NCBI RefSeq assembly: GCF_030013205.1
Contig: NZ_CP122648.1
Direction: 5' to 3' (one strand)
DNA: 64,000 bases
Source: Escherichia coli
Lineage (GTDB): Bacteria > Pseudomonadota > Gammaproteobacteria > Enterobacterales > Enterobacteriaceae
In this document: positions 9,113 through 37,437 of the stretch, piece by piece
How the letters are laid out: every line of letters begins with the position of its first letter
Position numbering within the stretch: position 1 is the stretch's first letter
Position numbers and translations under genes: made by a program
The notes under the pieces: model-generated
Databases searched by the model: none
What the model saw: the letters and a program-made list of their open reading frames with translations, nothing else
What the model was told of the DNA's origin: nothing

Positions 9113-10060
9113 ATGGAAAACAGTGACGATATCCGTTTGATTGTGAAGATTGCCCAACTCTATTACGAACAGGATATGACGCAGGCGCAAATCGCGCGCG
9201 AACTGGGTATTTACCGCACCACCATCAGCCGCTTGCTTAAACGAGGCCGCGATCAGGGAATTGTCACCATCGCCATCAACTATGACTACAACGAAAATCT
9301 CTGGCTGGAGCAGCAACTGAAGCAAAAGTTTGGCCTGAAAGACGTTGTGGTGGTGTCGGGAAATGATGAGGATGAAGAGACTCAACTGGCGATGATGGGG
9401 TTACACGGCGCGCAACTGCTGGATCGCTTGCTGGAGCCTGGCGATATTGTCGGTTTTTCCTGGGGTCGCGCGGTGAGCGCACTGGTTGAAAACTTGCCGC
9501 AGGCGGGGCAATCGCGGCAGTTAATCTGCGTACCAATTATTGGCGGACCGTCCGGTAAACTCGAAAGCCGCTATCACGTAAACACATTAACCTACAGCGC
9601 GGCAGCGAAGCTGAAAGGGGAATCGCATCTCGCGGATTTTCCGGCTCTGCTGGATAACCCATTAATTCGTAATGGGATCATGCAGTCTCAGCACTTTAAA
9701 ACCATCTCTGCCTACTGGGATAATCTGGATGTCGCCCTGGTGGGAATTGGCTCACCGGCCATTCGCGACGGCGCTAACTGGCATGCGTTTTATGGTGGTG
9801 AAGAGAGTGACGACCTGAATGCCCGCCAGGTTGCTGGCGATATTTGCTCGCGCTTTTATGATATTCACGGCGCAATGGTTGAAACGAATATGAGCGAAAA
9901 AACACTCTCTATCGAAATGAATAAATTAAAGCAGGCGCGGTATTCCATTGGCATTGCCATGAGTGAAGAAAAATACAGCGGAATTGTTGGTGCACTGCGT
10001 GGAAAATATATTAATTGTCTGGTAACGAATAGCAGCACAGCTGAACTATTACTGAAATAA
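9113..10060 (+). CDS. sorC: SorC-family transcriptional regulator of the sorbose operon
   Basis: ORF 9029-10060; start set at MENSDDIRL preceded by AGGAGG; N-terminal HTH (MTQAQIARELGIYRTTISRLLKRGR) plus sugar-binding domain; 315 aa. Confidence 0.8.
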   Translation: MENSDDIRLIVKIAQLYYEQDMTQAQIARELGIYRTTISRLLKRGRDQGIVTIAINYDYNENLWLEQQLKQKFGLKDVVVVSGNDEDEETQLAMMGLHGAQLLDRLLEPGDIVGFSWGRAVSALVENLPQAGQSRQLICVPIIGGPSGKLESRYHVNTLTYSAAAKLKGESHLADFPALLDNPLIRNGIMQSQHFKTISAYWDNLDVALVGIGSPAIRDGANWHAFYGGEESDDLNARQVAGDICSRFYDIHGAMVETNMSEKTLSIEMNKLKQARYSIGIAMSEEKYSGIVGALRGKYINCLVTNSSTAELLLK

Positions 10061-10291
10061 AAATCTTCCCGATGTTTACCGTAATAAAAATTACGGCGGG
10101 TCCCTATTATCTAAAATCAGGAGTCTGTTATGCAAACGTGGTTAAATTTGCAGGATAAAATCATTATCGTCACCGGCGGCGCATCCGGTATTGGTCTGGC
10201 GATTGTAGAGGAATTATTAGCACAAGGCGCAAACGTACAGATGGTCGATATTCACGGTGGCGATGGTCAATATGAAGGTCATAAAGGCTAT

Positions 10292-10300
10292 CAGTTTTGG
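10292..10300. repeat. IS1 target-site duplication, left copy (cagttttgg)
   Basis: 9 bp identical to 11069-11077, immediately flanking the IS1 inverted repeats. Confidence 0.85.
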
Positions 10301-10355
10301 GGTGATGCTGCCAACTTACTGATTTAGTGTATGATGGTGTTTTTGAGGTGCTCCA

Positions 10356-10631
10356 GTGGCTTCTGTTTCTATCAGCTGTCCCTCCTGTTCAGCTACTGAC
10401 GGGGTGGTGCGTAACGGCAAAAGCACCGCCGGACATCAGCGCTATCTCTGCTCTCACTGCCGTAAAACATGGCAACTACAGTTCACTTACGCCGCCTCTC
10501 AGCCCGGTACGCACCAGAAAATCATTGATATGGCCATGAATGGCGTCGGATGTCGCGCCAGTGCACGCATTATTGGCGTTGGCCTCAACACGATTTTCCG
10601 CCACTTAAAAAACTCAGGCCGCAGTCGGTAA
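10356..10631 (+). CDS. insA: IS1 InsA (transposition inhibitor / N-terminal part of InsAB' transposase)
   Basis: 91-aa [46 protein letters not shown]... with zinc-finger cysteines. Confidence 0.95.
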
Positions 10632-11053
10632 CCTCGCGCATACAACCGGGCAGTGATGTGATTGTCTGCGCTGAAATGGACGAACAGTGGGGCTACGTCG
10701 GTGCTAAATCACGTCAGCGCTGGCTGTTTTACGCGTATGACAGGATGCGGAGGACGGTTGTGGCGCACGTCTTCGGTGAACGCACTCTGGCCACACTGGA
10801 GCGTCTTCTGAGCCTGCTGTCGGCCTTTGAGGTCGTGGTATGGATGACGGATGGCTGGCCGCTGTATGAATCACGCCTGAAGGGAAAGCTGCACGTTATC
10901 AGCAAGCGTTATACTCAGCGCATTGAGCGGCATAACCTGAATCTGAGACAACATCTGGCAAGGCTGGGACGGAAGTCACTGTCGTTCTCAAAATCGGTGG
11001 AGCTGCATGACAAGGTCACCGGGCATTATCTGAACATAAAACACTATCAGTAA
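10550..11053 (+). CDS. insB: IS1 InsB (catalytic part of the InsAB' transposase made by -1 frameshift at TTAAAAAACTC)
   Basis: 167-aa ORF in the -1 frame overlapping the insA 3' end; slippery A-run present near 10600. Confidence 0.9.
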
Positions 11054-11068
11054 GTTGGAGTCATTACC

Positions 11069-11077
11069 CAGTTTTGG
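11069..11077. repeat. IS1 target-site duplication, right copy (cagttttgg)
   Basis: Identical to 10292-10300. Confidence 0.85.
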
Positions 11078-32424: not shown

Positions 32425-32544
32425 ATGCCTGGCAGTTCCCTACTCTCGCATGGGGAGACCCCACACTACCATCGGCGCTACGGCGTTTCACTTCTGAGTT
32501 CGGCATGGGGTCAGGTGGGACCACCGCGCTAAGGCCGCCAGGCA
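32425..32544 (-). rRNA. rrfE: 5S ribosomal RNA
   Basis: 120 nt matching the enterobacterial 5S sequence (minus strand TGCCTGGCGGCC...GGGAACTGCCAGGCAT). Confidence 0.95.
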
Positions 32545-32637
32545 AATTCTGTTTCATCAGACCGCTTCTGCGTTCTGATTTAATCTGTATCAGGCTGAAA
32601 ATCTTTCTCTCATCCGCCAAAACATCTTCGGCGTTGT

Positions 32638-35541
<2,904 letters not shown>

Positions 35542-35734
35542 TCACAACCCGAAGATGTTTCTTTCGATTCATCATCGTGTTGCGAAAATTTGAGAGACTC
35601 ACGAACAACTTTCGTTGTTCAGTGTTTCAATTTTCAGCTTGATCCAGATTTTTAAAGAGCAAATATCTCAAACATCACCCGAAGATGAGTTTTGAGATAT
35701 CAAGGCAGGTGACTTTCACTCACAAACCAGCAAG

Positions 35735-35810
35735 TGGCGTCCCCTAGGGGATTCGAACCCCTGTTACCGCCGTGAAAGGGCGGTGTCCTGGGCCTCTAGA
35801 CGAAGGGGAC
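35735..35810 (-). tRNA. gltV: tRNA-Glu (UUC) in the 16S-23S spacer
   Basis: Minus strand GTCCCCTTCGTCTAGAGGCCCAGGACACCGCCCTTTCACGGCGGTAACAGGGGTTCGAATCCCCTAGGGGACGCCA. Confidence 0.95.
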
Positions 35811-35895
35811 GTGTCAGTCTGCTTCGCAAGACGCCTTGCTTTTCACTTTCTATCAGACAATCTGTGTGAGCACTTCAAAGAACGCTTCTTTAAGG

Positions 35896-37437
<1,542 letters not shown>

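Follow-up and report, generated by a model that had tools for sequence, protein, structure and literature searches.

An IS1 insertion splits sorD in the L-sorbose operon of porcine Escherichia coli

The sor operon encodes the L-sorbose PTS together with functions for catabolism of the sugar, and sorD specifies sorbitol-6-phosphate dehydrogenase, the final enzyme of the L-sorbose pathway. In the window analysed here (64,000 nucleotides of contig NZ_CP122648.1, assembly GCF_030013205.1, from Escherichia coli), the operon sits between rluF and pepE and follows the order sorC-sorD-sorF-sorB-sorA-sorM-sorE, as in the sor operon of Klebsiella pneumoniae and E. coli. In contrast to that operon, sorD is split here by an IS1 element and is a disrupted allele, though it holds the place of sorD in the sorCDFBAME cluster. 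The NCBIfam models for PTS IIA, IIB, IIC and IID all score above cut-off within the operon. The features of the locus are as follows.

9113-10060, plus strand: sorC, the operon regulator (315 aa), intact, upstream of the insertion, 100% amino acid identity to strain WCHEC4533
10130-10300, plus strand: sorD 5' fragment, codons 1-57
10292-10300: left copy of the target-site duplication, CAGTTTTGG
10301-11068, plus strand: whole IS1 element, 768 bp, in the orientation of the sor operon
10301-10323, plus strand: IS1 left inverted repeat, GGTGATGCTGCCAACTTACTGAT
10308-10335: sigma-70-like site CTGCCA-16-TATGAT, overlapping the IS1 left repeat at the location of the known insA promoter
10356-10631, plus strand: insA, 91 aa, GTG start
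10550-11053, plus strand: insB' frame, 167 aa, no internal stop
10607-10613, plus strand: A6C motif AAAAAAC for -1 programmed frameshifting, joining insA to insB'
11046-11068, plus strand: IS1 right inverted repeat, reverse complement GGTAATGACTCCAACTTACTGAT
11069-11077: right copy of the target-site duplication, CAGTTTTGG
11078-11713, plus strand: sorD 3' fragment, codons 58-268 and stop, with neither start codon nor promoter of its own
11723-12130, plus strand: sorF, intact, 100% amino acid identity to WCHEC4533
12130-12624, plus strand: sorB, intact, 100% amino acid identity to WCHEC4533
12690-13487, plus strand: sorA, intact, 100% amino acid identity to WCHEC4533
13498-14322, plus strand: sorM, intact, 100% amino acid identity to WCHEC4533
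14374-15603, plus strand: sorE, intact, two substitutions relative to WCHEC4533

A preliminary description of this DNA had placed a 768-bp IS1 with inverted repeats, insA, insB and the A6C site inside sorD, and a script reproduced all of its coordinates. Both termini are the same as those of the K-12 IS1A element, with no difference in sequence, and they agree with each other at 18 of 23 positions, in keeping with the length of about 768 bp and the imperfect repeats of about 23 bp that define the family. A conceptual -1 shift at the A6C motif yields a predicted, stop-free InsAB' fusion of 232 aa (10356-11053), and RefSeq marks a 'programmed frameshift' for the IS1 transposase. This predicted product scores 242.8 bits against the NCBIfam model for IS1 family transposases (NF033558.1, cut-off 100), with the profile covered in full (1-199 of 199). 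The family's coding plan, an insA followed by an overlapping insB' linked through A6C frameshifting, can thus be read from the sequence, and the copy in sorD is functional-looking.

The element shares with K-12 IS1A its 768 bp, the terminal repeats, insA and insB' with A6C, and a 9-bp duplication. Counted over the element, there are 52 mismatches to K-12 IS1A and 32 to K-12 IS1F; nucleotides 1-177 are identical to IS1A, while nucleotides 187-768 are 97.6% identical to IS1F. The pattern identifies the copy as a recombinant (mosaic) isoform, composed of an IS1A-like and an IS1F-like part. The insB' frame of K-12 IS1F contains a stop, whereas that of the sorD copy is open.

The flanks of the element carry a duplication of exactly 9 bp, CAGTTTTGG, as the two sides no longer agree at the tenth base. 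Agreement over nine fixed positions is expected by chance at a rate of 4^-9, or about 4e-6. The perfect 9-bp duplication of the preliminary description was accordingly recovered; it falls within the 8-10 bp (usually 9) made by IS1, and empty sites hold a single copy. The claim that removing IS1 and one copy restores a 268-codon short-chain reading frame also held up. When 10130-10300 is fused to 11078-11713, the resulting 807 nt comprise 268 codons and a stop, and the product is 100% identical to the intact SorD of strain WCHEC4533 (WP_001195415.1). The restored 268-aa protein scores 499.7 bits against the sorbitol-6-phosphate dehydrogenase model NF004817.0 (cut-off 304).

The insertion point lies after sorD codon 57. 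Translation of the 5' fragment would continue into IS1 and end at the TAG at 10325-10327, giving a 65-aa product that retains the NAD-binding TGGASGIG motif (residue 15) without the catalytic YAATK (residue 161). An SDR enzyme carries TGxxxGxG and YxxxK in one polypeptide, as the restored SorD does at residues 15 and 161, but here the two motifs lie on opposite sides of IS1. RefSeq calls the interrupted sorD a pseudogene with a missing C-terminus. With the N-terminal part reduced to a 65-aa stub and the C-terminal part left without a promoter, the gene is to be read as a pseudogene, and the sequence shows that its enzyme is lost.

The distribution of the insertion was examined with a 1,771-nt query spanning both junctions, searched against 5,426 complete E. 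coli genomes. A full-length match occurs in 17 of them, 16 at 100% and W13-16 at 99.9%, and with 12.7 kb of context no genome other than these 17 carriers reaches 100% identity. All 17 are pig or wild boar isolates, and the countries of isolation include France, Japan and South Korea. For W13-16 and P15-25, both edema-disease strains of O139:H1 ST1, the genomes were completed from PacBio data (PMC8798679). The sorC-sorD flanking sequence is present in 2,867 of the 5,426 genomes. Comparing the junctions with other E. coli genomes, as the preliminary description had proposed, uncovered the uninterrupted allele: in empty-site genomes both flanks are 100% identical and span exactly 994 nt (1771 - 777). 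The 30-nt left junction had no match in a metagenome scan of JGI contigs, a setting in which IS junctions seldom assemble from short reads.

These comparisons bear on whether the assembly had wrongly placed in sorD a collapsed IS1 copy that belongs to another locus. The carriers have many copies of IS1, with 12-23 IS1-like places per chromosome, which is the usual setting for misassembly. The same junctions nevertheless recur in 17 closed genomes from various laboratories and countries, two of them from PacBio data, and a misjoin would not yield a duplication whose removal gives the exact wild-type allele. An artefact is therefore excluded, and the insertion is real. It is also already recorded, since RefSeq annotates an IS1-split sorD in the 17 carrier genomes; the case is one of textbook pseudogenisation and involves no new mechanism.

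The shared junctions indicate that the insertion marks a globally spread clone and is not private to one strain. Signs of youth are the perfect duplication, the unchanged flanks and an IS1 with 100% identity to copies elsewhere in the genomes that carry it, and no secondary damage to sorFBAME was found among the carriers. An evolutionarily young event fits this picture. The earlier characterization of the insertion as recent and clean stands as far as no decay is visible; it needs qualifying in that an insertion common to the clone in France, Japan and South Korea predates the clone's spread.

One of the carriers, K_EC180, whose sorC product carries the RefSeq annotation WP_001522149.1, differs from the window over 50 kb by one SNP and nine homopolymer indels. 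A second lesion shared with the 'frameshifted' sorM of K_EC180 was considered and rejected, as the homopolymer concerned is A8 in K_EC180 and A7 in the window. The homopolymer differences are probably sequencing errors in the K_EC180 assembly and not biology. They fall at window positions 14242, 14346, 25221, 25795, 32385 and 34118-35131, nearly all as single-base homopolymer indels, and in the annotation of that genome they produce an apparent sorM frameshift and a split espL4/arpA-like gene. In the window, the latter is an intact 728-aa gene of the ShET2/EspL family (espL4; arpA position) at 23638-25824 on the plus strand. It is located between iclR and aceK, and about 30 nt of it are shared with the 3' end of aceK.

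The mosaic IS1 itself has a restricted occurrence. Copies at least 99% identical to it are found in 150 of about 9,600 IS1-bearing records, and the best 40 of these 150 are all from swine strains, several being plasmid-borne. Among the matches listed from the E. coli collection, this isoform thus appears nearly confined to swine strains and plasmids. One such copy, at 99% identity or more, is on plasmid pW1316-2, which is listed with F18 and alpha-hly (PMC8798679). Within the carrier genomes, ETEC1748 gives an example of the copies with 100% identity to the sorD element, its best-listed copy being inside an RHS gene. The nearest non-carrier, CFSAN018748, has only 2 IS1-like places against the 12-23 of the carrier chromosomes. 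The difference suggests a lineage-specific expansion of IS1 in the clone, possibly seeded from a plasmid.

CFSAN018748 (swine, Denmark), also the nearest empty-site genome, has 7 SNPs relative to the window in the 10.3 kb upstream of the insertion site and 12 mismatches in the 21.5 kb downstream. Its sorD is intact. A TGG>TGA nonsense mutation is present in its sorM, at the equivalent of window position 13845 (position 18562 of locus L009), and its sorB has an in-frame 3-nt GAT insertion at window position 12496 (17210-17212 of L009). The sor operon of this neighbouring lineage is, as its sequence reads, independently inactivated. Unrelated strains of water, chicken and human origin showed four further independent IS1 insertions in sor genes.

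sorD: independent IS1 insertion in AGR5151 (L002)
sorF: independent IS1 insertion in Z1323CEC0004 (L011) and Z1323CEC0002
sorC: independent IS1 insertions in strains 315 (L012) and 98232 (L003)

The elements in these four cases are IS1A, IS1B and another mosaic. The common orientation of all five sor IS1 insertions, which is that of the operon, was set aside as evidence, for the search joined same-strand pieces only and would miss an element lying the other way round. Together with the sorM nonsense mutation of CFSAN018748, the four other insertions indicate that sor inactivation recurs.

Recurrence invites an adaptive reading, in which sorbose catabolism was lost repeatedly under selection in the pig edema-disease lineage and sorD was not a neutral hit; the benefit could, for example, be less sugar-phosphate stress or a lower pathway cost in the weaned-pig gut. 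We consider such selection unlikely. The nonsense mutation and 3-nt insertion in the nearest empty-site relative and the IS1 insertions in sorC, sorD or sorF elsewhere speak for it, but a test of selection would need more than the two knock-outs of neighbouring lineages, and sorD is uninterrupted in most operon-bearing strains. Moreover, sorbose metabolism is reported to raise the fitness and virulence of ExPEC (PMC13410766). The high IS1 copy number of the clone, set against that of CFSAN018748, makes a neutral hit likely. Should adaptive loss prove true, it would be the opposite of the reports on human ExPEC and would suggest that the sor pathway is subject to an antagonistic pleiotropy that depends on the niche.

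Deletion of sorD in CFT073 and BE079 abolishes growth on sorbose and leads to accumulation of sorbitol, and in CFT073 complementation with sorD served as a check of the deletion phenotype (PMC13410766; PMC12186808). Since published deletions have this effect, the strain is expected to be sorbose-negative through the loss of SorD alone, and polarity is not needed for the prediction. The sorbose-negative phenotype anticipated in the preliminary description is in this way backed by published mutants (PMC13410766; PMC12186808). No sorbose phenotype data for O139:H1 were found in the literature; in one study, 263 O139 isolates were typed on a panel that included sorbose, with results not given per sugar (PMC2438366).

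Expression of the downstream genes is a separate matter. They are intact, as had been stated for this DNA: SorF, SorB, SorA and SorM match their counterparts from the unbroken operon of WCHEC4533 at every residue, and SorE at all but two. From the insA stop to the sorF start there are 1,091 nt. A crude scan for Rho loading sites, based on the C/G ratio in 78-nt windows, placed C-rich, G-poor windows only within insA, the sequence past the insA stop being G-rich, and so lent polarity no further support. In classical gal and lac genetics IS1 is strongly polar in either orientation, and rho mutations relieve the polarity. As in sorD, the element in those cases interrupts a gene near the promoter of a polycistronic catabolic operon and leaves the later genes intact. 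They are laboratory mutants, whereas sorD::IS1 occurs naturally and has become fixed in the clone of a pathogen, and its polarity is deduced by analogy. As 1,091 nt have to be crossed after the insA stop, Rho-dependent polarity would probably reduce expression of sorFBAME, and polarity on these genes is plausible.

The opposite outcome is that SorD is lost while sorFBAME remain expressed, through read-through or a hybrid promoter at the IS1 end, so that the cell would import sorbose and convert it to sorbitol-6-phosphate, which builds up. This possibility would gain from the strong AAGGAGG ribosome-binding site before sorF and the intactness of every downstream gene, and a non-polar sorD deletion does accumulate sorbitol (PMC13410766). 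Against it, a consensus scan found no sigma-70-like promoter from the IS1 right junction through the 3' sorD fragment to sorF, although a weak or hybrid promoter may escape such a scan. In favour of a hybrid promoter, the ends of IS1 are reportedly able to provide the -35 element, a finding attributed to Prentki et al. in 1986. The gal and lac precedents are also opposed to continued expression of sorFBAME, which seems improbable. If polarity were absent or weak, the strain may be not merely sorbose-negative but sorbose-sensitive.

It is very probable, in our judgement, that the allele goes back to a single IS1 transposition into sorD in the ancestor of the O139:H1 ST1 edema clone, followed by vertical inheritance, with SorD lost and downstream expression probably reduced. 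IS1 would have transposed once between codons 57 and 58 of sorD in the ancestor of this porcine clone, and a 9-bp target duplication would have resulted from the staggered cut usual for the element. Vertical inheritance and fixation in the clone would then have followed. Loss of SorD should alone prevent growth on L-sorbose, to judge from the published deletions. Transcripts from the sorC promoter would cross IS1 past the insA stop and then the 3' sorD fragment, and insB' would be read only after a rare frameshift, so that Rho-dependent polarity, as known from classical IS1 genetics, probably lowers sorFBAME. The sor operon here is an early-stage pseudogenised pathway.

In practice the allele is of modest value, mainly for marking the clone. 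One example of its junction sequence, GGCTATCAGTTTTGG followed directly by GGTGATGCTGCCAAC, is a candidate for simple recognition of the O139:H1 ST1 edema clone by PCR or k-mers. The predicted sorbose-negative biotype is relevant to biochemical fingerprinting panels that include sorbose. As a natural sorD knock-out, the clone can also be compared with recent work that claims a role for sorbose metabolism in promoting E. coli virulence.

The comparison with CFSAN018748 also touched an rRNA operon (16S, tRNA-Glu, 23S, 5S) at 32426-37432 on the minus strand, where the differences between the two genomes are concentrated in the spacer and in the 16S and 23S genes. Positions 33327-33337, for example, hold a block of changes, and a patch of indels lies at 35562-35578. 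From their arrangement, these differences look like the outcome of gene conversion among rrn copies rather than of point divergence.
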